From Eledone cirrhosa (Eukaryota): 64,000 nt of DNA. Positions 1 to 37,400 of the stretch are shown here, piece by piece. The stretch is taken from contig OZ024744.1 in NCBI GenBank assembly GCA_964016885.1, forward strand, positions 135,532,001 through 135,596,000, read 5' to 3'. The notes below the pieces were generated by a model. It had not been told where the DNA came from and did no database searches. It saw only the letters and a list, made by a program, of their open reading frames with translations. The number at the start of each line of letters is the position of its first letter. Within the stretch, counting starts at the first letter, position 1. The position numbers and the translations under genes are program-made.

Positions 1-3000
1 TGTACACACTGTAAAGTGGTCATGTAGGTAACATGACATAAAGTACCCAGTACACACTGTAAAGTGGTCATGTAGGTGTCATGACAAAAAATACCCAGTA
101 AACACTGTAAAGTGGTCATGTAGGTGTCATGACAAAAAGTACCCAGTAAACACTGGAAAGTGGTCATGTAGGTGTCACATCAAAAAGTACCCAGTACACA
201 CTGTAAAGTGGTCATGTAGGTGTCACAACAAAATGTACCCAGTCCACACTATAAAGTGGTCATGTAGGTGTCACAACAAAAAATACCCAGTACACACTGT
301 AAAGTGGTCATGTAGGTGTCATTACAAAAAGTACCCAGTACACACTGTAAAGTAGTCATGTAGGTGTCACAACAAAAAGCACCGAGTATACACTGTAAAG
401 TGGTCATGTAGGTGTCACAACAAAAAGTACCCAATACATACTGTAAAGTGGTCATGTAGGTTTCACAACAAAAATTACCCAGTCCACACTGTAAAGTAGT
501 CATGTAGGTGTCACAACAAAAAGTACACAGTACATACTGTAAAGTGGTCATGAAGGTGTCATGACAAAAAGTATCCATTCCACACTATAAAGTGGTCATG
601 TAGGTTTTACAATAAAAAGAACCCAGTTCATACTGTAAAGTAGTCATGTAGGTGGCACAACAACAAGCACCCAGTACACACTGTAAAGTAGTCATGTAGG
701 TGGCACAACAATTCCCAGTAGATACTGTAAAGTGGTCATGAAGGTGTCATGACAAAAAGTACCCAGTCTACGCTGTGTGGTCATGTAGGTGTCATGACAA
801 AAAGTACCCAGTCCACACTGCAAAGTAGTCATGTAGGTGTCACAAGACAAAGTACCCAGTCCACACTGTAAAGTAGTCATGTAGGTGTCACAAGACAAAG
901 TACCCAGTCCACACTGTAAAGGAGTCATGTAGGTATCATGACAAAAAATACCCAGTAAAGACGGGAAAGTTGTCTTGTAGGTGTCACAACAAAAAGCACC
1001 CAGTACATACTGTAAAGTGGTTATGAAGGTGTCATGACAAAATGTACCCAGTACACACTGTAAAGTGGTCATGTAGGTGTCTCAACAAAAATAACTCAGT
1101 ACATACTGTAAAGTGGTTATGAAGGTGTCATGACAAAAAGTACCCATTTTACACTGTAAAGTGGTCATGTAGGTTTTACAACAAAAAGTACCCAGTCCAC
1201 ACTGTAAAGTAGACATGCAGGTGTCACAACAAAAAGTACTCAGTCCACACTGTAAAGTAGACATGTAGGTGTCACCGCAAAAAGTACTTAGTACACACTG
1301 TAAAGTGGTCATGTAGGTGTCACAACAAAACGTACCCAGTACAAACTGTAAAGTGGTCATGTAGGTGTCACAACAAAAAGTACCCAGTACACATTGTAAA
1401 TTGGTCATGTAGGTGTCACAACAAAATGTACCCAGTACACACTGTAAATTAGTCATGTAGGTGTCACAACAAAAAGTACCCTGTACACACTGTAAAGTGG
1501 TCATGTAGGTAACATGACAAAAAGTACCCAGTACACACTGTAAAGGGGTCATGTAGGTGTCATGACAAAAAATACCCAGTAAACACTGTAAAGTGGTCAT
1601 GTAGGTGTCATGACAAAAAGTACCCAGTAAACACTGGAAAGTGGTCATGTAGGTGTCACATCAAAAAGTACCCAGTACACACTGTAAAGTGGTCATGTAG
1701 GTGTCACAACAAAATGTACCCAGTCCACACTATAAAGTGGTCATGTAGGTGTCACAACAAAAAATACCCAGTACACACTGTAAAGTGGTCATGTAGGTGT
1801 CATTACAAAAAGTACCCAGTACACACTGTAAAGTAGTCATGTAGGTGTCACAACAAAAAGCACCGAGTATACACTGTAAAGTGGTCATGTAGGTGTCACA
1901 ACAAAAAGTACCCAGTACATACTGTAAAGTGGTCATGTAGGTGTCACAACAAAAATTACCCAGTCCACACTGTAAAGTAGTCATGTAGGTGTCACAACAA
2001 AAAGTACACAGTACATACTGTAAAGTGGTCATGAAGGTGTCATGACAAAAAGTACCCAGTACACACTGTAAAGTGGTCATGTAGGTGTCACAACAAAAAT
2101 TACTCAGTACATACTGTAAAGTGGTTATGAAGGTGTCATGATAAAAAGTACCTATTCCACACTGTAAAGTAGTCATGTAGGTGGCACAACAACAAACACC
2201 CAGTACACACTGTAAAGTGGTCATGTAGGTGTCACAAGACAAAGTACCCAGTCCACACTGTAAAGTGGTCATGTAGGTGTCACGGCAAAAAGTACCCAGT
2301 ACACACTGTAAAGTGGTCATGTAGGTGTCACAACAAAAAGAACCCAGTACACACTGTAATGTAGTCATGTAGGTGTCACAACAAACAGTACCCAGTACAC
2401 ACTGTAAAGTGGTCATGTAGATGTCACAACAAAGAGTACCCAGTACACACTGTAAAGTGGTCATGTAGGTGTCACAACAAAAAGTACCCATTCCACACTG
2501 TAAAGTGGTCATGTAGGTGTCACGGCAAAAAGTACCCAGTACACACTGTAAAGTGGTCATGTAGATGTCACAACAAAAAGTACCCAGTACACACTGTAAA
2601 GTGGTCATTTAGATGTCACAACAAAGAGTACCCAGTACACACTGTAAAGTGGTCATGTAGATGTCACAACAAAGAGTACCCAGTTCACACTGTAAAGTGG
2701 TCATGTAGGCGTCACATCAAAAAGTACCCAGTACAGAATGTAAAGTGGTCATGTAGGTGTCATGACAACAAATACCCAGTAAACACTGGAAAGTGGTCAT
2801 GTAGGTGTCACAACAAAAAGTACCCATTCCACACTGTAAAGTGGTCATGTAGTTGTCACAACAAAAGTACCCATTCCACACTGTAAAGTGGTCATGTAGG
2901 TGTCACAACAAAAAGTACCCGTTCCACACTGTAAAGTGGTCATGTAGTTGGCACAACAATAAGCACCCAGTACACACTGTAAAGAGGTCATGTAGGTTTC

Positions 3001-6000
3001 ATGACAAATAGTACCCAGTACATACTGAAAGTAGTCATGTAGGTGGCAAAACAAGTACCCAGTACATACTGTAAAGTGATCATGTAGGTGTCATGACAAA
3101 AAGTACCCAGTCCACACTGCAAAGCAGTCTTGTAGGTGTCACAAGACAAAGTACCCAGTCCACACTGTAAAGTGGTCATGTAGGTGTCAACAAAAAGTAC
3201 CCAGTACACACTGTAAAGTGGTCATGATGGTGTCACAACAAAAAGTACGCAGTCCACACTGTAAAGTGGTCATGTAGGTGTCACAACAAAAAGTACCCAG
3301 TACATACTGCAAAGTGGGCATGTAGGTGTCACAACAAAATGTACCCAGTCCACACTGTAAAGTAGTCATGTAGGTGTCACAAGACAAAGTACCCAGTCCA
3401 CACTGTAAAGTAGTCATGTAGGTGTCACAAGACAAAGTACCCAGTCCACACTGTAAAGTAGTCATGTAGGTATCATGACAAAAAATACCCAGTAAAGACG
3501 GGAAAGTCGTCTTGTAGGTGTCACAACAAAAAGCACCCAGTACATACTGTAAAGTGGTTATGAAGGTGTCATGACAAAATGTACCCAGTACACACTGTAA
3601 AGTGGTCATATAGGTGTCTCAACAAAAATAACTCAGTACATACTGTAAAGTGGTTATGAAGGTGTCATGACAAAAAGTACCCATTTTACACTGTAAAATG
3701 GTCATGTAGGTTTTACAACAAAAAGTACCCAGTCCACACTGTAAAGTAGACATGCAGGTGTCACAACAAAAGGTACTCAGTCCACACTGTAAAGTAGACA
3801 TGTAGGTGTCACCGCAAAAAGTACTCAGTACACACTGTAAAGTAGTCATGTAGGTGTCACAACAAAAAGTACCCAGTACAAACTGTAAAGTGGTCATGTA
3901 GGTGTCACAACAAAAAGTACCCAGTACACATTGTAAATTGGTCATGTAGGTGTCACAACAAAAAGTACCCAGTACACACTGTAAAGTAGTCATGTAGGTG
4001 TCACAACAAAAAGTACCCTGTACACACTGTAAAGTGGTCATGTAGGTAACATGACAAAAAGTACCCAGTACACACTGTAAAGGGGTCATGTAGGTGTCAT
4101 GACAAAAAATACCCAGTAAACACTGTAAAGTGGTCATGTAGGTGTCATGACAAAAAGTACCCAGTAAACACTGGAAAGTGGTCATGTAGGTGTCACATCA
4201 AAAAGTACCCAGTACACACTGTAAAGTGGTCATGTAGGTGTCACAACAAAATGTACCCAGTCCACACTATTAAGTGGTCATGTAGGTGTCACAACAAAAA
4301 ATACCCAGTACACACTGTAAAGTGGTCATGTAGGTGTCATTACAAAAAGTACCCAGTACACACTGTAAAGTAGTCATGTAGGTGTCACAACAAAAAGCAC
4401 CGAGTATACACTGTAAAGTGGTCATGTAGGTGTCACAACAAAAAGTACCCAGTACATACTGTAAAGTGGTCATGTAGGTTTCACAACAAAAATTACCCAG
4501 TCCACACTGTAAAGTAGTCATGTAGGTCTCACAACAAAAAGTACACAGTACATACTGTAAAGTGGTCATGAAGGTGTCATGACAAAAAGTATCCATTCCA
4601 CACTATAAAGTGGTCATGTAGGTTTTACAATAAAAAGAACCCAGTTCATACTGTAAAGTAGTCATGTAGGTGGCACAACAACAAGCACCCAGTACACACT
4701 GTAAAGTAGTCATGTAGGTGGCACAACAATTCCCAGTAGATACTGTAAAGTGGTCATGAAGGTGTCATGACAAAAAGTACCCAGTCTACGCTGTGTGGTC
4801 ATGTAGGTGTCATGACAAAAAGTACCCAGTCCACACTGCAAAGTAGTCATGTAGGTGTCACAAGACAAAGTACCCAGTCCACACTGTAAAGTAGTCATGT
4901 AGGTGTCACAAGACAAAGTACCCAGTCCACACTGTAAAGGAGTCATGTAGGTATCATGACAAAAAATACCCAGTAAAGACGGGAAAGTTGTCTTGTAGGT
5001 GTCACAACAAAAAGCACCCATTACATACTGTAAAGTGGTTATGAAGGTGTCATGACAAAATGTACCCAGTACACACTGTAAAGTGGTCATGTAGGTGTCT
5101 CAACAAAAATAACTCAGTACATACTGTAAAGTGGTTATGAAGGTGTCATGACAAAAAGTACCCATTTTACACTGTAAAGTGGTCATGTAGGTTTTACAAC
5201 AAAAAGTACCCAGTCCACACTGTAAAGTAGACATGCAGGTGTCACAACAAAAAGTACTCAGTCCACACTGTAAAGTAGACATGTAGGTGTCACCGCAAAA
5301 AGTACTTAGTACACACTGTAAAGTGGTCATGTAGGTGTCACAACAAAACGTACCCAGTACAAACTGTAAAGTGGTCATGTAGGTGTCACAACAAAAAGTA
5401 CCCAGTACACATTGTAAATTGGTCATGTAGGTGTCACAACAAAAAGTACCCAGTACACACTGTAAATTAGTCATGTAGGTGTCACAACAAAAAGTACCCT
5501 GTACACACTGTAAAGTGGTCATGTAGGTAACATGACAAAAAGTACCCAGTACACACTGTAAAGGGGTCATGTAGGTGTCATGACAAAAAATACCCAGTAA
5601 ACACTGTAAAGTGGTCATGTAGGTGTCATGACAAAAAGTACCCAGTAAACACTGGAAAGTGGTCATGTAGGTGTCACATCAAAAAGTACCCAGTACACAC
5701 TGTAAAGTGGTCATGTAGGTGTCACAACAAAATGTACCCAGTCCACACTATAAAGTGGTCATGTAGGTGTCACAACAAAAAATACCCAGTACACACTGTA
5801 AAGTGGTCATGTAGGTGTCATTACAAAAAGTACCCAGTACACACTGTAAAGTAGTCATGTAGGTGTCACAACAAAAAGCACCGAGTATACACTGTAAAGT
5901 GGTCATGTAGGTGTCACAACAAAAAGTACCCAGTACATACTGTAAAGTGGTCATGTAGGTGTCACAACAAAAATTACCCAGTCCACACTGTAAAGTAGTC

Positions 6001-9000
6001 ATGTAGGTGTCACAACAAAAAGTACACAGTACATACTGTAAAGTGGTCATGAAGGTGTCATGACAAAAAGTACCCAGTACACACTGTAAAGTGGTCATGT
6101 AGGTGTCACAACAAAAATTACTCAGTACATACTGTAAAGTGGTTATGAAGGTGTCATGATAAAAAGTACCTATTCCACACTGTAAAGTAGTCATGTAGGT
6201 GGCACAACAACAAACACCCAGTACACACTGTAAAGTGGTCATGTAGGTGTCACAAGACAAAGTACCCAGTCCACACTGTAAAGTGGTCATGTAGGTGTCA
6301 CGGCAAAAAGTACCCAGTACACACTGTAAAGTGGTTATGTAGGTGTCACAACAAAAAGAACCCAGTACACACTGTAATGTAGTCATGTAGGTGTCACAAC
6401 AAACAGTACCCAGTACACACTGTAAAGTGGTCATGTAGATGTCACAACAAAGAGTACCCAGTACACACTGTAAAGTGGTCATGTAGGTGTCACAACAAAA
6501 AGTACCCATTCCACACTGTAAAGTGGTCATGTAGGTGTCACGGCAAAAAGTACCCAGTACACACTGTAAAGTGGTCATGTAGATGTCACAACAAAAAGTA
6601 CCCAGTACACACTGTAAAGTGGTCATTTAGATGTCACAACAAAGAGTACCCAGTACACACTGTAAAGTGGTCATGTAGATGTCACAACAAAAAGTACCCT
6701 GTTCACACTGTAAAGCGGTCATGTAGGCGTCACATCAAAAAGTACCCAGTACAGAATGTAAAGTGGTCATGTAGGTGTCATGACAACAAATACCCAGTAA
6801 ACACTGGAAAGTGGTCATGTAGGTGTCACAACAAAAAGTACCCATTCCACACTGTAAAGTGGTCATGTAGTTGTCACAACAAAAAGTACCCATTCCACAC
6901 TGTAAAGTGGTCATGTAGGTGTCACAACAAAAAGTACCCGTTCCACACTGTAAAGTGGTCATGTAGTTGGCACAACAATAAGCACCCAGTACACACTGTA
7001 AAGAGGTCATGTAGGTTTCATGACAAATAGTACCCAGTACATACTGAAAGTAGTCATGTAGGTGGCAAAACAAGTACCCAGTACATACTGTAAAGTGATC
7101 ATGTCGGTGTCATGACAAAAAGTACCCAGTCCACACTGCAAAGCAGTCTTGTAGGTGTCACAAGACAAAGTACCCAGTCCACACTGTAAAGTGGTCATGT
7201 AGGTGTCAACAAAAAGTACCCAGTACACACTGTAAAGTGGTCATGATGGTGTCACAACAAAAAGTACGCAGTCCACACTGTAAAGTGGTCATGAAGGTCT
7301 CATGACAAAAAGTACCCAGTACACACTGTAAAGTAGTCATGTAGGTGTCACAACAAAAATTACTCAGTACATACTGTAAAGTGGTTATGAAGGTTTCATG
7401 AGAAAAAGTAGCCATTCCACACTGTAAAATGGTCATGTAGGTGTCACAACAAAAATTACCCAGTCCACACTGTAAAGTGGTCATGTAGGTGTCACAACAA
7501 AAATTACCCAGTCCACACTGTAAAGTAGTCATGTAGGTGTAACAACAAAAATTACTCAGTACATACTGTAAAGTGGTTATGAAGGTGTCATGAGAAAAAG
7601 TACCCATTCCACACTGTAAAGTGGTCATGTAGGTGTCATGACAAATAGTACCCAGTACACACTGTAAAGTAGACGTGTAGGTGGCAAAAGTACCCAGTAC
7701 ATACTGTAACGTGGTCATGTAGGTATTATGACAAAAAGTACCCAGTCTACACTGTGTGGTCATGTAGGTGTCACAACATAATGTACCCAGTACACACTGT
7801 AAAGTGGTCATGTATGTGTCACGACAAATAGTACCCAGTATACACTGTAAAGTAGTCATGTAGGTGGCACAACAAGTACCCAGTACATACTGTAAAGTGG
7901 TTATGAAGGTGTCATGACAAAAAGTACCCAGTACACACTGTAAAGTAGTCATGTAGGTGTCTCAACAAAAATAACTCAGTACATACTGTAAAGTGGTTAT
8001 GAAGGTGTCATGACAAAAAGTACCCATTTTACACTGTAAAGTGGTCATGTAGGTTTTACAACAAAAAGTACTCAGTCCACACTGTAAAATAGACATGCAG
8101 GTGTCACAACAAAAAGTACTCAGTCCACACTGTAAAGTAGACATGTAGGTGTCACCGCAAAAAGTACCCAGTACACACCGTAAAGTAGTCATGTAGGTGT
8201 CACAACAAAAAGTACCCAGTACACACTGTAAAGTGGTCATGTAGGTGTCACAACAAAAAGTACCCAGTACACATTGTAAAGTGGTCATGTATGTGTCATG
8301 ACAAAAAATACCCAGTAAAGACGGGAAAGTTGTCTTGTAGGTGTCACAACAAAAAGCACCCAGTACATACTGTAAAGTGGTTATGAAGGTGTCATGACAA
8401 AAAGTACCCAGTACACACTGCAAAGTGGTCATGTAGGTGTCTCAACAAAAATAACTCAGTACATACTGTAAAGTGGTTATGAAGGTGTCACAACAAAAAG
8501 TACCCAGTACACACTGTAAAGTAGTCATGTAGGTGTCACAACAAAAAGTACCCTGTACACACTGTAAAGTGGTCATGTATGTAACATGACAAAAAGTACC
8601 CAGTACACGCTGTAAAGTGGTCATGTAGGTGTCATGACAAAAAATACCCAGTAAACACTGTAAACTGGTCATGTAGGTGTCATGACAAAAAGTACCCAGT
8701 AAACACTGGAAAGTGGTCATGTAGGTGTCACATCAAAAAGTACCCAGTACACACTGTAAAGTATTCATGTAGGTGTCACAATAAAAAGTACCCAGTACAC
8801 ACTGTAAAGTAGTCATGTAGGTGTCATGACAAAAAGTACCCAGTAAACACTGGAAAGTGGTCATGTAGGTGTCACAACAAAAAGTACCCATTCCACACTA
8901 TAAAGTGGTCATGGAGGTGTCACAACAAAAAGTACCCAGTACATACTGTAAAGTGGTCATGTAGGTGTCATGACAAAAAATACCCTGTAAACACTGTAAA

Positions 9001-12000
9001 GTGGTCATGTAGGTGTCACAACAAAAATTACCCAGTACACACCGTAATGTAGTCATGTAGGTGTCACAATAAAAAGTACCCAGTACACATTGTAAATTGG
9101 TCATGTAGGTGTCACAACAAAAAGTACCTAGTACACACTGTAAAGTAGTCATGTAGGTGTCACAATAAAAAGTACCCAGTACACACTGTAAAGTGGTCAT
9201 GTAGGTGTCATGACAAAAAGTACCCAGTAAATACTGTAAAGTGGTCATGTAGGTGTCACAACAAAAATTACTCAGTACATACTGTAAAGTGGTTATGAAG
9301 GTGTCATGATAAAAAGTACCTATTCCACACTGTAAAGTAGTCATGTAGGTGGCACAACAACAAACACCCAGTACACACTGTAAAGTGGTCATGTAGGTGT
9401 CACAAGACAAAGTACCCAGTCCACACTGTAAAGTGGTCATGTAGGTGTCACGGCAAAAAGTACCCAGTACACACTGTAAAGTGGTCATGTAGGTGTCACA
9501 ACAAAAAGAACCCAGTACACACTGTAATGTAGTCATGTAGGTGTCACAACAAACAGTACCCAGTACACACTGTAAAGTGGTCATGTAGATGTCACAACAA
9601 AGAGTACCCAGTACACACTGTAAAGTGGTCATGTAGGTGTCACAACAAAAAGTACCCATTCCACACTGTAAAGTGGTCATGTAGGTGTCACGGCAAAAAG
9701 TACCCAGTACACACTGTAAAGTGGTCATGTAGATGTCACAACAAAAAGTACCCAGTACACACTGTAAAGTGGTCATTTAGATGTCACAACAAAGAGTACC
9801 CAGTACACACTGTAAAGTGGTCATGTAGATGTCACAACAAAAAGTACCCTGTTCACACTGTAAAGCGGTCATGTAGGCGTCACATCAAAAAGTACCCAGT
9901 ACAGAATGTAAAGTGGTCATGTAGGTGTCATGACAACAAATACCCAGTAAACACTGGAAAGTGGTCATGTAGGTGTCACAACAAAAAGTACCCATTCCAC
10001 ACTGTAAAGTGGTCATGTAGTTGTCACAACAAAAAGTACCCATTCCACACTGTAAAGTGGTCATGTAGGTGTCACAACAAAAAGTACCCGTTCCACACTG
10101 TAAAGTGGTCATGTAGTTGGCACAACAATAAGCACCCAGTACACACTGTAAAGAGGTCATGTAGGTTTCATGACAAATAGTACCCAGTACATACTGAAAG
10201 TAGTCATGTAGGTGGCAAAACAAGTACCCAGTACATACTGTAAAGTGATCATGTCGGTGTCATGACAAAAAGTACCCAGTCCACACTGCAAAGCAGTCTT
10301 GTAGGTGTCACAAGACAAAGTACCCAGTCCACACTGTAAAGTGGTCATGTAGGTGTCAACAAAAAGTACCCAGTACACACTGTAAAGTGGTCATGATGGT
10401 GTCACAACAAAAAGTACGCAGTCCACACTGTAAAGTGGTCATGAAGGTCTCATGACAAAAAGTACCCAGTACACACTGTAAAGTAGTCATGTAGGTGTCA
10501 CAACAAAAATTACTCAGTACATACTGTAAAGTGGTTATGAAGGTTTCATGAGAAAAAGTAGCCATTCCACACTGTAAAATGGTCATGTAGGTGTCACAAC
10601 AAAAATTACCCAGTCCACACTGTAAAGTGGTCATGTAGGTGTCACAACAAAAATTACCCAGTCCACACTGTAAAGTAGTCATGTAGGTGTAACAACAAAA
10701 ATTACTCAGTACATACTGTAAAGTGGTTATGAAGGTGTCATGAGAAAAAGTACCCATTCCACACTGTAAAGTGGTCATGTAGGTGTCATGACAAATAGTA
10801 CCCAGTACACACTGTAAAGTAGACGTGTAGGTGGCAAAAGTACCCAGTACATACTGTAACGTGGTCATGTAGGTATTATGACAAAAAGTACCCAGTCTAC
10901 ACTGTGTGGTCATGTAGGTGTCACAACATAATGTACCCAGTACACACTGTAAAGTGGTCATGTATGTGTCACGACAAATAGTACCCAGTATACACTGTAA
11001 AGTAGTCATGTAGGTGGCACAACAAGTACCCAGTACATACTGTAAAGTGGTTATGAAGGTGTCATGACAAAAAGTACCCAGTACACACTGTAAAGTAGTC
11101 ATGTAGGTGTCTCAACAAAAATAACTCAGTACATACTGTAAAGTGGTTATGAAGGTGTCATGACAAAAAGTACCCATTTTACACTGTAAAGTGGTCATGT
11201 AGGTTTTACAACAAAAAGTACTCAGTCCACACTGTAAAATAGACATGCAGGTGTCACAACAAAAAGTACTCAGTCCACACTGTAAAGTAGACATGTAGGT
11301 GTCACCGCAAAAAGTACCCAGTACACACCGTAAAGTAGTCATGTAGGTGTCACAACAAAAAGTACCCAGTACACACTGTAAAGTGGTCATGTAGGTGTCA
11401 CAACAAAAAGTACCCAGTACACATTGTAAAGTGGTCATGTATGTGTCATGACAAAAAATACCCAGTAAAGACGGGAAAGTTGTCTTGTAGGTGTCACAAC
11501 AAAAAGCACCCAGTACATACTGTAAAGTGGTTATGAAGGTGTCATGACAAAAAGTACCCAGTACACACTGCAAAGTGGTCATGTAGGTGTCTCAACAAAA
11601 ATAACTCAGTACATACTGTAAAGTGGTTATGAAGGTGTCACAACAAAAAGTACCCAGTACACACTGTAAAGTAGTCATGTAGGTGTCACAACAAAAAGTA
11701 CCCTGTACACACTGTAAAGTGGTCATGTATGTAACATGACAAAAAGTACCCAGTACACGCTGTAAAGTGGTCATGTAGGTGTCATGACAAAAAATACCCA
11801 GTAAACACTGTAAACTGGTCATGTAGGTGTCATGACAAAAAGTACCCAGTAAACACTGGAAAGTGGTCATGTAGGTGTCACATCAAAAAGTACCCAGTAC
11901 ACACTGTAAAGTATTCATGTAGGTGTCACAATAAAAAGTACCCAGTACACACTGTAAAGTAGTCATGTAGGTGTCATGACAAAAAGTACCCAGTAAACAC

Positions 12001-13350
12001 TGGAAAGTGGTCATGTAGGTGTCACAACAAAAAGTACCCATTCCACACTATAAAGTGGTCATGGAGGTGTCACAACAAAAAGTACCCAGTACATACTGTA
12101 AAGTGGTCATGTAGGTGTCATGACAAAAAATACCCTGTAAACACTGTAAAGTGGTCATGTAGGTGTCACAACAAAAATTACCCAGTACACACCGTAATGT
12201 AGTCATGTAGGTGTCACAATAAAAAGTACCCAGTACACATTGTAAATTGGTCATGTAGGTGTCACAACAAAAAGTACCTAGTACACACTGTAAAGTAGTC
12301 ATGTAGGTGTCACAATAAAAAGTACCCAGTACACACTGTAAAGTGGTCATGTAGGTGTCATGACAAAAAGTACCCAGTAAATACTGGAAAGTGTTCATGT
12401 AGGTGTCACAACAAAAAGTACCCGTTCCACATAGTAAATTGGTCATGTAGGTGTCACAACAAAAAGTACCCAGTACACACTGTAAAGTGGTAACGTAGGT
12501 ATCATGACAAAAAGTACCTAGTACACACTGTAAAGTGGTCATGTAGATGTCACAACCAAAAGTACCCAGTACACACTGTAAAATGGTCATGTAGGTGTCA
12601 TGACAAAAAGTATCCAGTACACACTGTAAAGTGGTCATGTAGGTGTCACAACAAAAAGTACCCAGTACATACTGTAAAGTGGTCATGAAGACGTCATGAC
12701 AAAAAATACCCAGTAAACACTGGAAAGTGGTCATGTAGGTGTCACAACAGAAAGTACCCATTCCACACTGTAAAGTGGTCATGTAGATGTCCCAACAAAA
12801 AGTACCCAATACCCACTGTAAAGTAGTCATGTAGGTGGCCCAACAACAAGTACCCAGTACACACTGTAAAGTGGTCATGTATGTGTCACAACAAATAGTA
12901 CCCAGTATACACTGTAAAGTAGTCATGTAGGTGGCACAACAAGTACCCAGTACATACAGTAAAGTGGTCATGTAGGTGTTATGACAAAAAGTACCCAGTC
13001 TACACTGTGTGGTCATGTAGGTGTCATGACAAAAAGTACCCAGTCCACACTGGAAAATACTCATGTAGGTGTCACAACAATAAGTACCCAGTACACACTG
13101 TAAAGTGGTCATGTAGGTGTCACAACAATAAGTACCCAGTACACACTGTAAGGTAGTCATGTAGGTGTCACAACAAAAAGTACCCAGTCCACACTGCAAA
13201 GCAGTCATGTAGGTGTCACAACAAAAAGTACCCAGTCCACACTGCAAAGCAGTCATGTAGGTGGCACAACAAAATGTATCCAGTACACATAGTAAAGTGG
13301 TCATGTAGGTGTCACAAAAAAAAGTACCCAGTACACACTGTAAAGTGGTT
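1..13350. repeat. 48-bp tandem satellite (consensus CCCAGTACACACTGTAAAGTGGTCATGTAGGTGTCACAACAAAAAGTA), ~278 copies, with kb-scale higher-order duplications; runs off the left edge
   Basis: Monomer read directly from the sequence. Identical variant blocks recur at offsets 4018, 3150, 2537 and 1481 bp (matching ORF-track pairs). Confidence 0.99.
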
Positions 13351-13490
13351 AGTGTTAGGAAGGGCATCCAACTGTAGAAACCAAGCCAGAAACAGTGCTG
13401 TATGAGCAGAACATAGTCACCTGACCTGGCTTGTCTCACATGGGACAACTTGTCTAACCCATACTAACTTGGAAAATGGACATTAAATGG
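13325..13490 (+). mobile_element. 3' tail of RTE-LINE/SINE family, continuous with the last satellite monomer
   Basis: ...CACTGTAAAGTGGTTAGTGTTAGGAAGGGCATCCAACTGTAGAAACCAAGCCAG...TGTCTAACCCATACTAACTTGGAAAATGGACATTAAA matches the RTE 3'UTR at 32570-32745 and the reverse complement of 17690-17865. Confidence 0.9.
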
Positions 13491-13523
13491 TTAAGATACA
13501 AGATTAAATGGTTAAGATACAAG
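13482..13523. repeat. Perfect 21-bp tandem duplication ATTAAATGGTTAAGATACAAG x2
   Basis: Read directly from the sequence. Confidence 0.9.
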
Positions 13524-13524
13524 C

Positions 13525-13850
13525 GCTTCTTAATAAAAAATGATGTTGGGGTAAGTGGAGTAGGTGTTTTACTAGCCAAGAAGTGGATGGACAAAATAGT
13601 TGAGAGGGAATTATCTATCTTGGTTATCACAAGAATCGTGGCTAACGAGAGAACAGAAATACCATTCTTGTGTGGGCAGACAACTTCAATAACAAGACCT
13701 GGACAGAATCCTCGGTTTGTCAGTAATGTCACCCATTGATGGATTACTTCAGTGACTACTTTAACTCTCCCAAATCATTTCAACATTTCACCAACTATCT
13801 CTGACAATCCAACAGTTTTACCATTTTTGATCTCATTGATCCACCTTGCC
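13525..13850. mobile_element. Degenerate RTE-LINE scraps (endonuclease piece on +, pre-RT piece on -)
   Basis: + strand GVSGVGVLLAKKWMDKIVE resembles the RTE APE domain. - strand IKNGKTVGLSEIVGEMLK resembles MKMGKATGPSGIAAEMLK of the RTE at 19588-19842. Confidence 0.55.
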
Positions 13851-13929
13851 TAAACAGCAATGATGGGCTGTTAAAAATGTGGATTATGGTATGATCAAAT
13901 TGGATATTGATGTCTGGTCCTCACATATT

Positions 13930-14495
13930 TATTATCTTCTTGTTCTTGCTCAATGAGACAAGGGTCATCCTCAGTCAGTGATCCCAGAGGCATCATCATC
14001 CATAGAGCCAACCAGGTTCCTCAGTGCTCTCCATTGTTGGTGGTATTGTGCCACCCCCTCTGCATCCTCGTGACATCGAGTCTCTGGAGATCTTCCTTGA
14101 AGATATGCAACCATCTGGTGAGGGAACTGTCACGGGTCCTCTTCCAGCCTGTACCTGCTGTGCTCAACATATCTATTGTTCACTGTTAAAATTAAGTGAC
14201 TGACTGACAACTCCTGTGTCGGATCTCTGTCATCACCATGCATGGCTGGTGTCTGTTTCCAATGAAGTGGCTGAAGCTAGCTAAACCCATCCTGAGATAG
14301 TGCCAACACTGTATTTGTGTCGGTACTTCCCCAATGATGACACAAAAACAGATGAGGTCAGTCCAGACACATTCACATAAAATCCTCCAATATAATTTTC
14401 TGAACTTACTTAAAAACTTGGATTGAACCATTGTCCGAAGCTGATGCCAATATGTCGGTACCTTTACAGAACGCCATATGCTGGATGTGGCCACC
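13930..14495 (-). mobile_element. Decayed non-LTR retrotransposon 3' fragment
   Basis: - strand C-terminal motif GTGWKRTRDSSLTRWLHIFKEDLQRL (degenerate KRPRGRP..RW..DL), followed by a short A-rich tail. Confidence 0.55.
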
Positions 14496-14544
14496 TGAAA
14501 TATTAAAATACAAAACTTAGAACAAAATCAACTGAAGGAATGTC

Positions 14545-14616
14545 ATAGTGCTGTATGAGCAAGATATGGTCATCTGATCTGGCTTGTCTCACAATGAACG
14601 GCTTGTTTAACCCATG
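14545..14616 (+). mobile_element. RTE-family tail fragment
   Basis: AGTGCTGTATGAGCAAGATATGGTCATCTGATCTGGCTTGTCTCACA..TTTAACCCATG is similar to 13393-13462. Confidence 0.7.
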
Positions 14617-16142: not shown

Positions 16143-16192
16143 TATGTTGCAACAGCTATATATAATTATTAAATTTTTTTTACAGACAACCC

Positions 16193-17687: not shown

Positions 17688-17925
17688 ATCATCATCATCA
17701 TCGTTTAACGTCTATCTTCCACGCTAGCATGGGTTAAACGGTAATTGTCCCACTTGAGGCAAGACTGGTCAGGTGACCAAGTCTCGCTCGTATAGGACTC
17801 TACCTGGCAGGTTTTCTACGGCTGGATGCCCTTCCTAACACCAACCACATTTACAGTGTGGACTGGGAGCTTCTTTACCGTGTTACCTACACGGCCACAT
17901 TATAGCGTGGACTGGGTGTTTTATT
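17688..17925 (-). mobile_element. RTE-tailed SINE or short LINE 3' end carrying ~1.5 copies of the 48-bp motif
   Basis: (ATC)n tail, GCTAGCATGGGTT, GGATGCCCTTCCTAACACCAACCAC, then TTTACAGTGTGGACTGGG...TTATAGCGTGGACTGGG about 48 bp apart. Confidence 0.85.
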
Positions 17926-17980
17926 CAATTATATGATAAAGTTATATCTGTATAACTATGTTCGAAAATCAATTCAAAGT

Positions 17981-20155
17981 CATCATCATCACCGTTTTAC
18001 ATCCGTTCTTCCATGCTAGCATGGGTTAGACGGGTTGTCCTGTTGTGGGCAGTGTCTGGTCGGCTGACCATGCCTTGCTCATGCAGGAACTGATTTGGCT
18101 TGATTTCTACAGCTGGATGCCCTTCCTAACACCAACCTCATTTACAGTATGGGCTGGGTGCTTTTTTGCCATGGCACCTCCACGACCACCTTGCAGTGGG
18201 AGGGTGTGGGGCATATTGTCTATATGCTTCAGCTTGTACCCATGGGAGGTCGGGTACTCTGTATTACTGCGTGACGCCAGAGGTCACGGTCGTGTGTCAT
18301 CGCCTTTGAGAGGTTAATTGGGTAAAGTCGGCTTTTATCACCTCATCCCAGGTCTTCTTGGGTCTCCCCACTCCGCGGTTTCCATTGACTTCTAGTGCTC
18401 TGCACCTTTTTATGCAGCTGTCATCCTTCATACGCATCACATGTCCATACCAACGCAACCGCCTCTCCTGCATGCAGCATTTGATTCCTCTTATGCTCAG
18501 TCTCTCTCTCAATTCATTTATGCTTTGTCGTTCGCGTATATTACTTTTACACATCCATCGGAGCATGCAGGCTTCGTTTCTTTCTAATTAACGTAAGTCT
18601 TCCACCTTCAGCGCCCAGGTCTCACTACCATGTAACATTGCTGTTCGGATACACGCATCATACAGTCTGCCTTTCATTCTGAGGGAGAAGCCTTTTGCAG
18701 CTAGCAGTGGCAGTAGTTCCCTGAACTTCTTCCATCCCGTTCTTACCCTAGTTATTGTACTTTCTGAACAGCCACCTCCGCTGCTAATTCGGTCACCTAG
18801 GTAGCAGAAGCTGTCTACTGTTTCTACAGAGCCCTCCCAGAGATTGGTGGTACTTGTTTCCTGTGGCTGTTTGCTGCTTGCTGTCTCAGCACAGCTGCTG
18901 CATGTGAAGCCTACATTCTTAATTAAGCTTCCTGAGATCCTGCTACATCTCTTGAGTACCCATTGTTTGCATTTGGGGCAGAGAATGGAGTTCCTACCTA
19001 CACCTTTCCTACATACTGAGCAAGGCCATTTCCCTGAGGGGATCTGGGCTCTGTTTTCTCGTCTACTTACAAGGACCTTAGTCTTTGAGACCCTTTCTTT
19101 CTAGTCTCTGCTTCCAAGTTTGGAATTTCTTCTCTAGTTCTACCATAGATTCAGCTATAAGTGCGAGGTCATCAGCATACAGGAATTCCCATGGGCATCC
19201 GGTCTTAAACTCCTCCGTTATTGCCTGCAGGACTATGATGAACAGGAGAGGGCTAAGAACAGAGCACTGGTGGACCCCAACCTGTACGCTAAATTCCTCG
19301 CTATACTCATTGCTAATCCTAACTTTGCTGACTGCTCCCCTATACATGGCTTGTACAGCTTTCACAAGCCATTCATCTACTCCTAGTTTTCTAAGAGCCC
19401 ACCAGATTACAGCACGTGGAACTCTGTCAAAGGCTTTCTCGAGATCGACGAATGCCAAGTAGAGTGGCTTACTTTTAGCTAGGTACTTTTCCTGTAACTG
19501 CCTCACAAGGAAGAGGGTATCAGTGGTGCCTCTTCCTGGTACAAACCCAAATTGCATCTCATCTAGTTTCACCCGGTCCCTAATCAACTATGCTATAACT
19601 CTTTCTGTTACTTTCATGACCTGGTCCATCAGCTTTATACCTCTATAGTTTCCTCTAACTAGTGCATCACCTTTACCTTTGTAGCAGTTGACAATGATGC
19701 TACTGCACCAATCTTTTGGTATGACACCTTCTAGTATTACCTGGTTAACAATACGTGTGGTTATAGTGTGACCTACAGACCCAGATGCCTTCAGCATCTC
19801 GGCAGCTATACCCGATGGACCGGTTGCCTTCCCCATCTTCATATCTTTGATTGCCTTACTTACTACGCTGCTGCTGACTTATACTGCTGGCCCCTCTATA
19901 GGATCTACTTGGGGTAGGGTCTCTTCTTCCCATGCATTCTCCTCATTTAGTAATCTATGATAATGGCTCTTTTATGCATCTTTCTTCTCAGCACTTGTGA
20001 GGGCAAGCTCACCTTTATCATTCCGGATACACTTCTCTCCAATGACATCACAATTCTCTCTGACACACTGCCTCGCAATCTTGAACACCTCCTGATTCTG
20101 GTCCTCACGTTGCAAAACATGCTTGAATTTTCTATCCTCTGCTTCCCTCCTAGCT
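17981..20155 (-). mobile_element. 5'-truncated RTE-clade LINE (RT domain, Cys-rich insert, 3'UTR, (GAT)n tail), inactivated
   Basis: NYRGIKLM, QFGFVPGRGTTD, FVDLEKAFDRVP, GVHQCSVLSPLLF, LYADDLAL, RRLRWYGHVMR, GRPKKTW; in-frame stops and frameshifts. Confidence 0.95.
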
Positions 20156-20324
20156 AAGTATACTTAGTATCACTTTTACAATTTACATTAAAATGTGTAT
20201 ATTTGGCATGTTTACCATTCACATTACTGTTTTTACTTTTGTATTTTCACGGTAATCACTTTAACTCACATAATATCAAATTTATGAGATTTTGATTCAC
20301 ATTGTACCATTGGTAACTGTTTTT

Positions 20325-20592: not shown

Positions 20593-20618
20593 CTGAAAGT
20601 AAGTAAAATGTTTGTTAC

Positions 20619-20747
20619 CTTGCTTGCTGTATGTGAACTTTGACCGGTTAGCGACACTTTTTCCTTCCAACTGGCCACAGTCCCATAACTTCATAGTTCC
20701 GTCTGGAACATGTAGCAAACATGGAGTGGTCTGTACACACAGCAATC
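20619..20747 (-). CDS. PIK3R4: PIK3R4/Vps15 exon (7th in window), first WD40 repeat; contains an apparent 2-nt deletion at ~20704
   Basis: ttttttaaag|G ATT GCT...CAA G|gtaac. Reads [14 protein letters not shown][shift]DGTMKLWDCGQLEGKSVANRSKFTYSKQG, versus recalled human [44 protein letters not shown]. Confidence 0.88.
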
Positions 20748-20848
20748 CTTTAAAAAATAACACAAGAATTTTATGACATGATTAATTATGTCACAGCATA
20801 AAATTCATTTTAGAAATTTTATGCAGTGAAGACATTTTTCCAATTCAG

Positions 20849-21975: not shown

Positions 21976-22165
21976 CTGTTCACAACTGACTTGTGTTCTT
22001 GCATGTGAGCAACAAGTTGACCCTTTGGTTTCCAGTTCTGTGGAGGAAAAATCTGGTCAAGACCAACCCCTTCCAAGATGTCTTTTGTCCTAATATCAGC
22101 TTCGTATTGCTCTCGCCTGCGATTCACTAAATTCCTTAGGTCTTGTTTGCAAGGTGCATAACGAG
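21976..22165 (-). CDS. PIK3R4: PIK3R4/Vps15 exon (6th in window)
   Basis: tttactttag|CT...AAC AG|gtaaat. Reads [63 protein letters not shown], versus recalled human ...[24 protein letters not shown]. Confidence 0.93.
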
Positions 22166-26809: not shown

Positions 26810-26890
26810 ATCATCATCATCGTTTAACGTCTATCTTCCATGCTAGCATGGGTTACATGGGAATTGTCCCATTTAAGGTAAGATTGGTGT
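26810..26890 (-). mobile_element. Short RTE-family tail insertion
   Basis: ATCATCATCATCGTTTAACGTCTATCTTCCATGCTAGCATGGGTTA, near-identical to 17691-17737. Confidence 0.8.
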
Positions 26891-27811: not shown

Positions 27812-27907
27812 ATATGAGCAAGGCATGGTCAGCCGACCAGACACTGCCCACAACAGGACAACCCGTCTAGCATGGAAGAACGGACGTAAAACAGTGATGA
27901 TGATGAT
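27812..27907 (+). mobile_element. RTE-LINE 3' tail fragment with (GAT)n
   Basis: Near-identical to the reverse complement of 17981-18083. Confidence 0.85.
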
Positions 27908-28059
27908 ATATATATATATATTTATATATATATATGTACATAAATATATAGTGGCAAGAAACTCCCAGGAGAGCTGGGACAAAGGTCTTCAGAGAAGAGA
28001 CCACCACCCACCCAGATGAGTGTTTTGGCCCTTAACTTTTATATATATCTATATATACA

Positions 28060-28240
28060 CTTACATGACCACTTTAGAGTGTGTACTGGGTACTTTTTGT
28101 TGTGACACCTACATGACCACTTTACAGTGTGGACTGGGTACTTTTTGTTGTGACACCTACATGACCACTTTTTGTCTCACATGGGACAACTTGTCTAACT
28201 CATGCTAACATGGAAAATAGATGTTGACCAGTGATGATGG
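28060..28240. mobile_element. Orphan ~2.3 monomers of the 48-bp satellite (inverted) fused to a + strand RTE tail
   Basis: 28060-28171 is the reverse complement of the array consensus. It is followed by TTGTCTCACATGGGACAACTTGTCTAAC, identical to 13431-13458. Confidence 0.9.
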
Positions 28241-28396
28241 TGGTGGTGGTGGTGATGGTGGTGGTGGTGATGATGTGATGGTGTGATGGTGGTGATGATG
28301 GTGGTGATGGTGATGGTGGTGGTGGTGGTTATGGTTGTGGTGGTGATGGTGGTGGTAGTGGTGATGATGGTGATGGTGGTGGTGACGGTGGTGATG
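28232..28396. repeat. (TGG/TGA)n trinucleotide tract
   Basis: Read directly from the sequence. Confidence 0.9.
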
Positions 28397-29850: not shown

Positions 29851-29901
29851 CCAGCATGGCCACAGTCAAGTGTTAAGAGGTGTACATGTAATGAAACTTA
29901 C

Positions 29902-31400: not shown

Positions 31401-31601
31401 GGCTTCTATATGTGAGTGCCTGTATGTGTTTCTTGATGTCATAAGGAAAATCTCCGTTACAACTCATAAATACACACCTGGTGAGACTTAAAATTTACCT
31501 AAGTTTGATTTATCTGATTAATTAACAGGTAATTCAAGATAAATAAGATTTTAATAATTTAAACTGAACTGAAGCACTCTATCAGTTACAACGATGAGTG
31601 T

Positions 31602-32749
31602 AGAGAAGAAATTCCAAACATGGAAGCAGGGACTAGAAACAAAAGGTCTCAAAGTCAACCTGACAAAGACTAAGGTCCTTGTAAGTAGACGAGAAAACAG
31701 AACCCAGATCCCCTGAAGGAAATGGCCTTGCTCACTATGTAGGAAAGGTGTAGGTAGGAACTCCATTCTCTGCCCCAAATGCAAACAATGGGTTCACAAG
31801 AGATGTAGCGGGATCTCAGGAAGCTTAACTAAGAATGAAGGCTTCACATGTAGCAGCTGTGCTGGGACAGGAAGCAGCAAACAGCCACAGGAAACAATCA
31901 CCACTAAACTCTGGGAGGGCTCTGTAGAAACAGTAGACAGCTTCTGCTACCTAGGTGACCAAATTAGCAGCAGAGGTGGGTGTTCGGAAAGTACAATAAC
32001 TAGGGTAAGAACAGGATGCAAGAAGTTCAGGGAGCTACTGCTACTGCTAGCTGCAAAAGGCTTTTCCCTCAAAATGAAAGGCAGACTGTATGATGCGTGT
32101 ATACGAACAGCGATGTTACATGGTAGTGAGACCTGGGCACTGCCTGTGGAAGATTTGTGTAGATTGGATGTGTAATAGTAATATATGCGAACGGCAAAGC
32201 ATAAATGAATTGAGAGAGAGACTGAGCATAAGAGGAATCAAATGCTATGTCCAGGAGAGGCGGTGACGTTGGTATGGACATGTGATGCGTATGAAGGATG
32301 ACAGCTGCATAAAAAGGTGCAGAGCACTAGAAGTCAATGGAAACCGCGGAGTGGGGAGACCCACGAAGACCTGGGATGAGGTGATAAAAGCCGACTTTAC
32401 CCAATTACACCTCTCAAAAGCGATGACATACGACCGTGACTTCTGGCGTCATGCAGTAATACAGAAGACCCGGCCCCCAATAGGTACAAGCAGAATCTGA
32501 AGCATATAGACAATATGCCCCCACACCCTCCCACTGCAAAGAGGTCGTGGAGGTGCCACGGCAAAAAAGCACCCAGCACCCACTGTAAATGAGGTTGGTG
32601 TTAGGAAGGGCATCCAGCTGTAGAAATCAAGCCAGAATCAGTTCCCGTATGAGCAAGACAAGGTCAGCCGACCGGGCACTGCCCACTACAGGACAACCCG
32701 TCTAACCCATGCTAGCATGGAAGAACGGACGTAAAACCGTGATGATGAT
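31602..32749 (+). mobile_element. 5'-truncated RTE LINE, close relative of 17981-19135, inserted into a SINE
   Basis: Reverse-complement similarity along its length; (GAT)n tail; TSD GATGAGTGT at 31593-31601 and 32750-32758. Confidence 0.93.
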
Positions 32750-33035
32750 GATGAGTGTTCTAGTTGATCCGATTAACAGAACAGCCTGCTCATAAAATTA
32801 ACGTGCATGTGACTGAGCATTCCACAGATATGTGGGCACTTAACGTAGTTCTCAGGGAGATTCAACATCATACAGAATGTGACAATGCTAGCTCTTCGAA
32901 TTACATGTACAATTTATTTTTGCCAGGTGAGTGGACTGGAGCAACGTGAAATAAAATGTCTTGCTCAGGGACACAACACATCGCCAGGAATCGAACTGAC
33001 AACCTTACGATTGTAAACCCAATACCCTAACCACA
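32750..33035 (-). mobile_element. tRNA-derived SINE (remainder at ~31570-31601, split by the RTE)
   Basis: - strand head GTGGTTAGGGTATTGGG..GTTCGATTCC (B box); core CTGAGCAAGACATTTTATTTCACGTTGCTCCAGTCCACTCA. Confidence 0.8.
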
Positions 33036-34386: not shown

Positions 34387-34444
34387 CTGTCAAATAATAT
34401 CACCATTTTCATTACAAACATGTCATCATCATTGTTTTCTAAAC

Positions 34445-37400
34445 TGACATGGGCTAGACAAGTAATTACAGACTATTGTCCTACATACATGGGTTGGACA
34501 AGTTATTACAGGCTATTGACCTACATACATGGGTTGGACAAGTTATTACAGACTATTGTCCTACCTGGCATGGGTTGGACAATGTATTACAGACTATTGT
34601 CCTACCTGTCATGGGTTGGACAAGTTATTACAGACTATTGTCCTACCTGTCATGGGTTGGACAAGTTATTACAGACTATTGTCCTACCTGTCATGGGTTG
34701 GACAAGTTATTACAAACTATTGTCCTACATACATGGGTTGGACAAGTTATTACAGACTATTGCCCTACCTGTCATGGGTTGGACAAGTTATTACAGACTA
34801 TTGTCCTACCTGTCATGGGTTGGACAAGTTATTACAGACTATTGTCCTACATACATGGGTTGGACAAGTTATTACAGACTATTGCCCTACCTGTCATGGG
34901 TTGGACAAGTTATTACAGACTATTGCCCTACCTGTCATGGGTTGGACAATGTATTACAGACTATTGTCCTACCTGTCATGGGTTGGACAAGTTATTACAG
35001 ACTATTGTCCTACATACATGGGTTGGACAAGTTATTACAGACTATTGTCCTACCTGTCATGGGTTGGACAAGTTATTACAGACTATTGTCCTACATACAT
35101 GGGTTGGACAAGTTATTACAGACTATTGTCCTACCTTTCATGGGTTGGACAAGTTATTACAGACTATTGTCCTACATACATGGGTTGGACAAGTTATTAC
35201 AGACTATTGTCCTAACTGTCATGGGTTGGACAAGTTATTAGAGACTATTGTCCTACCTGGCATGGGTTGGACAAGTTATTACAGACTATTGTCCTACCTG
35301 TCATGGGTTGGACAAGTTATTACAGACTATTGTCCTACATACATGGGTTGGACAAGTTATTACAGACTATTGTCCTACCTGTCATGGGTTGGACAAGTTA
35401 TTACAGACTATTGTCCTACCTGGCATGGGTTGGAGAAGTTATTACAGACTATTGTCCTACATACATGGGTTGGACAAGTTATTACAGACTATTGTCCTAC
35501 CTGTCATGGGTTGGACAAGTTATTACAGACTATTGTCCTACATACATGGGTTGGACAAGTTATTACAGACTATTGTCCTATATACATGGATTGGACAAGT
35601 TATTACAGACTATTGTCCTACCTGTCATGGGTTGGACTAGTTATTACAGACTATTGTCCTATATACATGGGTTGGACAAGTTATTACAGACTATTGTCCT
35701 ACCTGTCATGGGTTGGACAAGTTATTACAGACTATTGTCCTACATACATGGGCTGGACAAGTTATTACAGTCTATTGTCCTATATACATGGGTTGGACAA
35801 GTTATTACAGACTATTGTCCTACCTGGCATGGGTTGGATAAGTTATTACAGACTATTGTCTTACCTGTCATGGGTTGGACAAGCTATTACAGACTATTGT
35901 CCTACCTGTCATGAGTTGGACAAGTTATTACAGACTATTGTCTTACCTGTCATGGGTTGGACAGGTTATTACAGACTATTGTCCTACATACATGGGTTGG
36001 ACAAGTTATTACAGACTATTGTCCTACATACATGGGTTGGACAAGTTATTACAGACTATTGTCCTACCTGTCATGGGTTGGACAAGTTATTACAGACTAT
36101 TGTCCTACATACATGGGTTGGACAAGTTATTACAGACTATTGTCCTACCTGGCATGGGTTGGATAAGTTATTACAGACTATTGTCTTACCTGTCATGGGT
36201 TGGACAAGCTATTACAGACTATTGTCCTACCTGTCATGAGTTGGACAAGTTATTACAGACTATTGTCCTACCTGTCATGGGTTGGACAGGTTATTACAGA
36301 CTATTGTCCTACATACATGGGTTGGACAAGTTATTACAGACTATTGTCCTACATACATGGGTTGGACAAGTTATTACAGACTATTGTCCTACATACATGG
36401 GTTGGACAAGTTAGTACAGACTATTGTCCTACATACATGGGTTGGACAAGTTATTACAGAATATTGTCCTACATACATGGGTTGGACAAGTTATTACAGA
36501 CTATTGTCCTACATACATGGGTTGGACAAGTTATTACAGACTATTGTCCTACCTGTCATGGGTTGGACAAGTTATTACAGACTATTGTCCTACATACATG
36601 GGTTGGACAAGTTATTACAGACTATTGTCCTACCTGGCATGGGTTGGATAAGTTATTACAGACTATTGTCTTACCTGTCATGGGTTGGAGAAGCTATTAC
36701 AGACTATTGTCCTACCTGTCATGAGTTGGACAAGTTATTACAGACTATTGTCCTACCTGTCATGGGTTGGACAGGTTATTACAGACTATTGTCCTACATA
36801 CATGGGTTGGACAAGTTATTACAGACTATTGTCCTACATACATGGGTTGGACAAGTTATTACAGACTATTGTCCTACATACATGGGTTGGACAAGTTATT
36901 ACAGACTTTGTCCTACCTGTCATGGGTTGGACAAATTATTACAGACTTTTATCCTACCTGGCATGGGTTGGACAAGTTATTACAGACTATTGTCCTACCT
37001 GTCATGGGTTGGACAAGTTATTACAGACTATTGTCCTACCTGTCATGGGTTGGACATGTTATTACAGAGTATTGTCCTACCTGTCATGGGTTGGACAAGT
37101 TATTAGAGACTATTGTCCTACATACATGGGTTGGACAAGTTATTACAGACTATTGTCCTACCTGTCATGGGTTGGACAAGTTATTACAGCCTATTGTCCT
37201 ACATACATGGGTTGGACAATTTATTACAGACTATTGTCCTACCTGTCATAGGTAGGACAAGTTATTACACACTATTGTCATACCTGTCATGGATTGGACA
37301 AGTTATTACAGACTATTGTCCTACCTGTCATGGCTTGGACAAGTTATTACAGACTATTGTCCTAAATTCATGGGTTGGACAAGTTATTACAGACTATTGT

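Follow-up and report, generated by a model that had tools for sequence, protein, structure and literature searches.

How does a satellite array come to end in the tail of a retroposon? The question is raised by 64,000 nucleotides (nt) of the Eledone cirrhosa genome (GenBank assembly GCA_964016885.1, contig OZ024744.1, positions 135,532,001 to 135,596,000 of the forward strand; here the window, numbered from 1), which open with a satellite of 48-bp units (array 1) followed without a gap by a retroposon tail. We find that the unit is homologous to part of an abundant RTE-type module and that array 1 ends in the tail of this module; we consider it fairly probable that the array grew in place from an inserted copy with few units.

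The 48-bp array ends in register in a retroposon tail

Array 1 lies at 2..13349 on the plus strand (Tandem Repeats Finder (TRF) period 48, 279.4 copies). It begins at the window edge and is cut there, so its 279 units are a minimum. When the array was split by unit, 257 of the 279 monomers were 48 bp long, 125 were distinct, and the mean distance from the consensus was 7.8%. The last monomer (13299..13346, plus strand) matches the consensus at 47 of 48 positions, the best of the last 12, and passes in register into the tail (13347..13489, plus strand), which bears out an initial annotation, made from the letters of the window, that had the array running unbroken into a retroposon tail. The tail comprises a core motif (13347-13380) of the type found in RTE 5′ untranslated regions (UTRs), a subfamily-specific middle and an RTE 3′ end, and can be aligned with copies at 32.6, 18.0 and 17.8 kb. 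The terminal unit of array 1 carries on in this way for ~143 nt up to the end of the element's tail, and the (ATG)n tract is absent. The terminal stem-loop (13459-13472) has decayed, with 3 of 5 pairs kept; a tail in this state and with no (ATG)n tract is as expected of a dead relic. An RTE endonuclease fragment (13515..13604, plus strand; residues 95-124 of the relative P0011) is the likely flank that received the founder insertion.

Array 1 contains near-identical kb-scale duplications. The block 6027-9273 equals 9177-12423 (3.2 kb, 99.7% identity), the block 1-2867 equals 4019-6885 (2.9 kb, 99.6% identity), and a further 1.3-kb block is duplicated at 98.7%. Monomer likeness is not higher for neighbours than for distant monomers, save at the block periods, and the block pattern would fit unequal exchange in kb steps. 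Slippage at a 9-bp repeat is possible; the visible growth steps of array 1 are the kb-scale duplications. Monomers nearing the tail end show no gradient toward the retroposon sequence carried by long interspersed nuclear elements (LINEs) of the window (mean of 0.71 for the last 10 vs. 0.73 overall).

Retroposon copies of the window carry the unit and fall into subfamilies

The array 1 consensus was aligned to retroposon copies elsewhere in the window, with 2000 dinucleotide shuffles as the null and match counts derived from the printed alignments and scores. Two of the copies are 5′-truncated RTE-like LINEs. The 32-kb copy (31579..32755, plus strand) has an open reading frame (ORF) end at ∼32499, followed by the unit homologue (32532-32589), the core, the tail and (ATG)n; the 2.2-kb 18-kb copy (17980..20163, minus strand) carries reverse transcriptase (RT) and PHD finger sequence in broken frames and ends in the module with ∼1.2 units. 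A short copy at 17.8 kb (17690..17920, minus strand) has 1.5 units, the core, the tail and (ATG)n, and no ORF upstream. The consensus matched 32532-32589 at 47 of 58 positions (score 69, shuffle maximum 37), the 18-kb copy at 45 of 58 (score 61, shuffle maximum 32) and the 17.8-kb copy at 56 of 73, or 1.5 units (score 75, shuffle maximum 42). No shuffle of 2000 reached any of these scores, so the expectation that the monomer would align to the three segments better than shuffled controls held, as did the ∼1.5 units assigned to the 17.8-kb copy.

The closest match is at 28 kb, where 28057-28171 agrees with the consensus at 112 of 115 positions over 2.4 units. These monomers (28057..28171, minus strand; both full ones 47/48 to the array consensus) are inverted relative to the tail piece that they adjoin, which is a tail end of the array 1 subfamily (28172..28393, plus strand, 46/50) with a (TGA/TGG)n tract behind it. 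A 5′-inverted retrocopy has this layout: its 5′ part is inverted, and its 3′ end and tail run forward. The two full 28-kb monomers and the last array monomer are each 47/48 to the consensus, and the average monomer is 7.8% off; the consensus therefore looks like the founder.

The short direct repeat that was said to bound the 32-kb unit is present (13 nt, 2 mismatches, offset 49); it measures 26 nt in the 17.8-kb copy and is decayed in the 18-kb copy. The in-register unit of the LINE copies is 50 bp long, against 48 bp in the array, and agrees with the array consensus at 37-39 of 50 positions; over the unit region the 32-kb and 17.8-kb copies agree at 39 of 50. The array 1 tail is equally far from the 32-, 18- and 17.8-kb copies (113/144, 112/147 and 112/146) and nearer to the fragments at 28172 (49/56) and at 14547 (14547..14615, plus strand, array 1 subfamily, 57/69).

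The unit numbers seen in the window are about 1.2, 1.2, 1.5, 2.4 and at least 279. The initial annotation had arranged them as a series of 1, ∼1.5, ∼2.3 and ∼278 units; since the array 1 tail is closer to the 28-kb and 14.5-kb fragments than to the LINE copies, the series is not one lineage, and its members are cousins of at least three subfamilies. Nor can the unit of the 32-kb element be kept as the ancestral one, with a tail match of 113/144 only, a unit of 50 vs. 48 bp and a closer relative at 28 kb. The nearest relative of array 1 in the window is the 2.4-unit 28-kb copy, not the 32-kb LINE. The founder of array 1 belonged to a third subfamily, of which a multi-unit member sits 15 kb away and of which no LINE lies within the 64-kb window. 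That the 2.4-unit copy is opposite in strand to the tail piece it touches, that the array tail has no (ATG)n and that the RTE unit is 50 bp long had been missed in the initial annotation.

Two more tail fragments with (ATG)n were found, one of the 17.8-kb subfamily (26810..26888, minus strand, tail end, 61/69) and one of the 32-kb subfamily (27813..27907, plus strand, 79/95). By eye, the tail fragments at 26810-26888, 27813-27907 and 28057 lie in or beside (TA)n tracts, suggesting a target preference.

The LINE copies are assigned to RTE by proxy. Pieces at 18.6-19.6 kb and 31.7-32.2 kb match RVT_1 and PHD. One search returned 74 LINE relatives, 12 of them longer than 1000 aa with single ORFs of 1040-1088 aa, and 11 of these 12 match PF03372 (APE endonuclease) and PF00078; named animal matches among the 74 are only two, Octopus bimaculoides proteins at 54 and 58%. 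The RTE architecture (a single ORF of ∼1000-1100 aa with APE endonuclease and RT) is thus seen via the relatives, the window copies all being 5′-truncated, and the simple-repeat 3′ tail behind a conserved end, an RTE trait, is seen in the (ATG)n ends of the 18-kb and 32-kb elements. The label RTE, provisional here, rests on architecture and a motif shared with hagfish, and not on an RT tree. With full-length relatives mapped on, the 32-kb ORF ends at about 32460-32499, and the unit therefore sits in the 3′ UTR of the LINE; the ORF-to-module junction is common to the 18-kb and 32-kb copies. A PHD finger is inserted behind the RT domain in both (17980-20163 and 31579-32755), as in many relatives. 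Animal-type LINE sequence also occurs in contigs titled bacterial metagenome-assembled genomes (P0004, L081, L082), probably as contamination.

The module combines a 5′-UTR-type core with an RTE 3′ end

Published work is cited here by its PubMed Central identifier, and what is said of it refers to the portion of each source that was available. The motif directly behind array 1 is found ∼80 nt from the 5′ end in two hagfish RTE consensus sequences, and in the same RTE study the matching part of short interspersed nuclear elements (SINEs) is assigned to the RTE 5′ UTR (PMC7245038). We compared 82 distant loci with LINE relatives (33-50% identity to the query; the metagenome share is the best 80 of 532). 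In 42 of the 82, with at least 150 nt behind the ORF, the core motif was never present within 150 nt behind the ORF (0/42). Core matches numbered 19, in 17 of the 82 loci, mostly in dispersed elements; in five distant elements the core and an RTE-type end lie 180-195 nt apart, and three of these five are flanked by 12-19-bp repeats.

Duplications occur at both ends of the distant elements. After three of the 19 with no recognisable head had been dropped, a second head copy was present at most 40 nt upstream in 6 of 16, compared with 83 of 20000 control windows. At the tail end, one locus (L080) carries the last 45 nt nearly twice and another (L050) a 13-nt duplication. In animal metagenomes, L035, L038, L039, L045, L048, L049 and L080 represent a dispersed family of 230-300 nt with the core, the RTE end, 12-19-bp flanking repeats and frequent head duplications.

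What the module shares with distant 3′ ends is its last ∼41 nt. These contain a 5-bp stem-loop in which both sides have changed, and a search pattern that fixed the outer two pairs retrieved it from 18 of 42 distant ends. The "RTE tail" of the initial annotation is therefore apt for the last ∼41 nt, a conserved RTE 3′ end, but not for the motif right behind the array, which was absent from the 150 nt behind all 42 distant ORFs; likewise its placement of the unit in an RTE-LINE 3′ UTR is right by position and is qualified by the 5′-UTR-type core beside it. By place in the LINE of this genome the motif is 3′ UTR, and by homology it is of 5′-UTR type. The module looks like a bipartite RTE derivative, also carried by the local LINE as its 3′ end. 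The layout expected of such a derivative (a 5′-UTR part and an RTE 3′ end, no ORF) is found in the distant copies and is plausible for the 17.8-kb copy.

A tRNA head was not detected: no tRNA was found in the window and Rfam gave no match in 13200-34700, with tools that are weak on decayed SINE heads. The core motif is absent from the text and the searched supplements of the MetaSINE study, which describes a 66-bp Meta domain (PMC4824008; supplement file 1 lay outside the search), and a MetaSINE identity of the core is neither supported nor contradicted. Nor does the motif occur in the supplements searched for PMC5786205 and, file 1 aside, for PMC4758252, and exact scans gave no hit in metagenome contigs and none in viral contigs.

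Reads show multi-unit joints and a very abundant module family

Reads of the same species were placed on 13285-13735 at 85% likeness; X7 is a reduced-representation library, and X1 may stem from the source sample. The 48-bp go-back joint, from one monomer back into the next, was present in 902 X7 reads from 44 starts and in six X1 contigs, and 2084 X7 reads run on upstream into another monomer. Diverged extra monomers occur in 81-130 reads each. Run X4 yielded 2 contigs and run X6 none, which is evidence in neither direction. Varied unit lengths, suggested by go-back joints of 28-59 bp, were considered and dropped: with the intervening letters counted, the checkable ones are ∼47-49 or 96 bp.

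Summed contig depth was 1.9-3.7 million for monomer and core, 9,000-84,000 for the distal tail and 7.07 for the unique flank, values that are not copy numbers. The module family is very abundant and splits into several tails behind 13380-13396. At position 13325, the LINE-like C was present in 5910 of 7529 X7 reads vs. 17 of 257 array monomers; dominant in reads and rare in the array, it indicates that most monomer-like DNA belongs to something other than this array variant. A 21-bp direct duplication at the tail end (13482..13523, plus strand) is absent in one X1 contig and in 75 X7 reads (1 start), and is either an allele or an assembly slip.

A second satellite resembles the other end of the module

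A 41/40-bp satellite (satellite 2; 34444..64000, minus strand; 726 units, cut by the window end) lies 21 kb from array 1. Its units are 1.5-3% from the consensus, and it contains kb-scale duplications. Aligned to a profile of seven local tails, the 41-bp consensus occupies the last 40 columns ungapped and scores 26.5 bits, a value reached by 0 of 1500 shuffles (both strands); the 40-bp form fits 17 columns (2/1500 shuffles). Satellite 2 ends in a shortened unit, and its non-repeated end (34421..34443, minus strand) closes with (ATG)3, 12 bp off the satellite, on the tail-matching strand. The 21 kb between the arrays hold four other minus-strand (ATG) tracts, three of which are tail ends. Judged by this resemblance, satellite 2 probably derives from the last 41 nt of the tail end of the same retroposon module. 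Lying 21 kb from array 1 and likely coming from the same element, it suggests that the family seeds satellites repeatedly; the element family likely seeded satellite DNA more than once.

A hairpin of 6-7 bp is possible in the first half of the unit in LINE copies (13299-13346 and 32543-32592 compared), and in 68 of 257 array 1 monomers a linked variant of two letters makes it possible again. Folding and Rfam did not support a conserved structure of the unit hairpin. Five of six folded stretches were unremarkable (z −0.86 to 0.20), and three units of the 41-bp satellite gave z −2.27. Rfam had no match at gathering score in 13200-34700 (two chance matches at 32400-32800), so a ribozyme in the unit is unsupported.

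Origin of array 1

Homology to the module, an in-register junction with its tail, near-identical kb-scale duplications and multi-unit joints in reads are established for array 1; from these we infer a seeding step, mobility of multi-unit copies and growth in place. The bipartite module, an RTE 5′-UTR-type head and core joined to an RTE 3′ end, would move in two forms, by itself as a short non-autonomous element and within the local LINE as its 3′ end. Duplication of the head region is the likely source of the first two or three units, either through a template restart at reverse transcription or through slippage at the 13-26-nt internal repeat, and copies with several units were likely still mobile and spread. 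One of them would have landed beside the old endonuclease fragment (13515-13604), where unequal exchange may have enlarged it beyond 13 kb, with the last unit and the tail surviving as a relic. For satellite 2 a similar origin, from the final 41 nt of the module, is likely.

Several points weigh against this account. The 28-kb copy resembles twin-primed L1 retrocopies (PMC2912911, PMC4245944) in its inverted 5′ part and its forward 3′ end with a simple-repeat tail, and differs from them in that ∼120 nt between both parts are missing and a target-site duplication was not found (the 66 nt upstream and the 68 nt downstream have no word of 7 or more letters in common). An experimental study found 5′ inversions almost solely for human L1 (PMC4245944). 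The lack of a target-site duplication and this near-restriction make an RNA origin uncertain, and we give the RNA route for the 28-kb copy about an even chance. The reads do not show several units with a tail at many separate loci. The blocks at 99.6-99.7% identity could in part be assembly duplication. The far end of array 1 lies outside the window, and the founder may have been either a LINE or a short non-autonomous element. The monomer matches distant heads over about 10-20 nt only, a profile of the window module over the first two thirds of the unit finds nothing in distant elements, and the 5′-UTR origin of the unit rests on its position beside the core; the distant loci, moreover, may stem from few host species. 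As to satellite 2, pairwise comparisons with tails were equalled by 2 to 52 of 1000 shuffles, the unit keeps 2 of 5 stem pairs, and a profile of 18 distant 3′ ends gave no significant match (201/1500 shuffles), although this test is weak, since the 28-kb tail itself gets an even lower score.

Alternatively, slippage at the short direct repeat might have duplicated the one unit that an autonomous LINE copy carried in its 3′ UTR, with expansion following at that site; we regard this as unlikely. The unit does lie behind the ORF in both the 18-kb and the 32-kb LINE, and a direct repeat is present in the 32-kb copy (13 nt, offset 49) and in the 17.8-kb copy (26 nt). However, the array 1 tail is 76-78% identical to the LINE and 17.8-kb copies but 83-92% to two ORF-less fragments, the LINE unit is 50 bp and the array unit 48 bp, and the window is devoid of any LINE of the array 1 subfamily. 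The 2.4-unit copy, at 47/48 and 15 kb off, further means that multi-unit forms are not limited to the array 1 locus.

Less likely again is a secondary junction, in which the satellite was born elsewhere from the same module and met the tail here only later: either a monomer recombined with the corresponding unit in a dispersed element, or a 5′-truncated copy became joined to that unit through homology. Monomer-like and core sequences are extremely abundant and offer many ectopic partners, homology would yield a seamless in-register joint, and the 28-kb copy shows that monomers and tail pieces can join out of order. Against it, the last monomer is the nearest to the consensus among the last 12, the tail is of the same subfamily as the monomer-bearing 28-kb copy, and squamate SINE-derived satellites as a rule have this one-sided anatomy (PMC10702118).

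Similarity by itself carries no direction, and an older satellite could have given one to two units to the retroposon family; this is very improbable, since the unit has diverged between retroposon copies (32-kb vs. 17.8-kb copy, 39/50) far beyond the distance of the monomers from their consensus (7.8%), and the end portion of the unit runs directly into a core that distant animals have conserved. That the length of array 1 comes largely from assembly around a short tandem copy, to which the ∼3-kb blocks at 99.6-99.7% identity and the 21-bp duplication missing from an X1 contig could point, is hardly credible, because copying a few units cannot give 125 distinct monomers and 7.8% divergence, and monomer-to-monomer joints are present in reads.

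Returning to growth in place from a mobile few-unit copy, a bolder form of it, which we put forward tentatively and hold to be rather doubtful, is that the RTE machinery itself seeds satellites: it would duplicate the head and the terminal stem-loop of short partner elements during copying and spread multi-unit seeds as RNA, and both ends of one element would have grown, 21 kb apart, into arrays of more than 13 kb and more than 29 kb.

Other features of the window

Between the arrays, a PIK3R4/Vps15-like gene is represented on the minus strand by exons at 21976-22172 and 20616-20752 (E 9e-11 and 0.007 vs. solved human-type chains) and by further likely exons at 13880-14500 and 23081-23285. The 20.7-kb exon seems frame-shifted and the 14-kb pieces contain stops, indicating a decayed copy or assembly errors. 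The gene is oriented toward array 1 and may be interrupted by this array.

A second LINE family in inverted copies, decayed mariner-like and hAT-like DNA transposons (by eye) and Penelope-like RT pieces jointly occupy 15250-16150, 16200-17680, 27040-27600, 23560-24400 and 29000-30760. Three of the DNA-transposon or Penelope pieces were compared with Pfam and none received a name; the second LINE gave DUF6451 below the cut-off. About three tandem copies of a dispersed repeat of ∼200 bp lie at 22480-23041 (TRF period 200, two copies at 96%); we take this repeat to resemble a cephalopod SINE.

Comparison with known systems and significance

The kind is already known: array 1 is a retroposon-derived satellite with one-sided anatomy. 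Its unit is homologous to part of the element and its terminal unit reaches the element's end; for satellite 2, the homology is to local tails (0/1500 shuffles) and not significant to distant ends, and a shortened unit followed by (ATG)3 closes the array. In squamate SINE-derived satellites (PMC10702118) the tandem unit likewise comes from part of a retroposon, a longer terminal unit matches the element to its end, and short and long arrays (up to 1000 units) occur side by side; the same source reports LINE segments as satellite sources. Those satellites come from tRNA-headed SINEs, with units of about 125-150 bp, in squamate hosts. Here the source is an RTE-type module with no detected tRNA head, the units are 48 and 41 bp, the host is an invertebrate, and two satellites likely come from two parts of one element. 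The 3′-UTR tandem repeats of Ogre elements in Lathyrus sativus (PMC7004042) are alike in that short mobile-element seeds sometimes expand to long arrays and one element family gives several satellites; Ogre, however, is a long terminal repeat (LTR) element with particle-based strand transfer, and the element here is non-LTR. Bipartite non-autonomous RTE derivatives and RTE-mobilised SINEs (PMC5786205, PMC7245038) share the joining of a 5′-UTR piece to an RTE 3′ end, and the same core motif occurs in hagfish RTE 5′ UTRs and SINEs. Unlike these as described, the whole module here also forms a LINE 3′ end and carries a variable number of 48-50-bp units. A description of either satellite was not found in the literature available to us (PMC13282606 and PMC9115989 included); Repbase and Dfam lay outside this search, and prior annotation there is possible. 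What differs from known cases is the RTE-type bipartite module, the short units, the likely origin of two satellites from its two ends and the parallel head and tail duplications in distant animals.

For annotation, both arrays belong under retroposon-derived, non-coding repeats, and the long ORFs in them are an artefact of their periodicity; we imply no function for either array. A LINE with a 5′-UTR-type motif at its 3′ end is a second point of interest for RTE biology. The first is that the seeding step can be counted in a very high-copy family with one-unit, few-unit and hundreds-unit states, whose tail records orientation and subfamily. If seeds form during reverse transcription, dispersed multi-unit copies with target-site duplications should be shared across loci; if they form by DNA slippage, each expansion should be specific to its locus. 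If RTE machinery does act as a seeder, the process would be general, with the same two duplication hot spots in distant animals, and this high-copy family would provide the full series, from one unit to hundreds.

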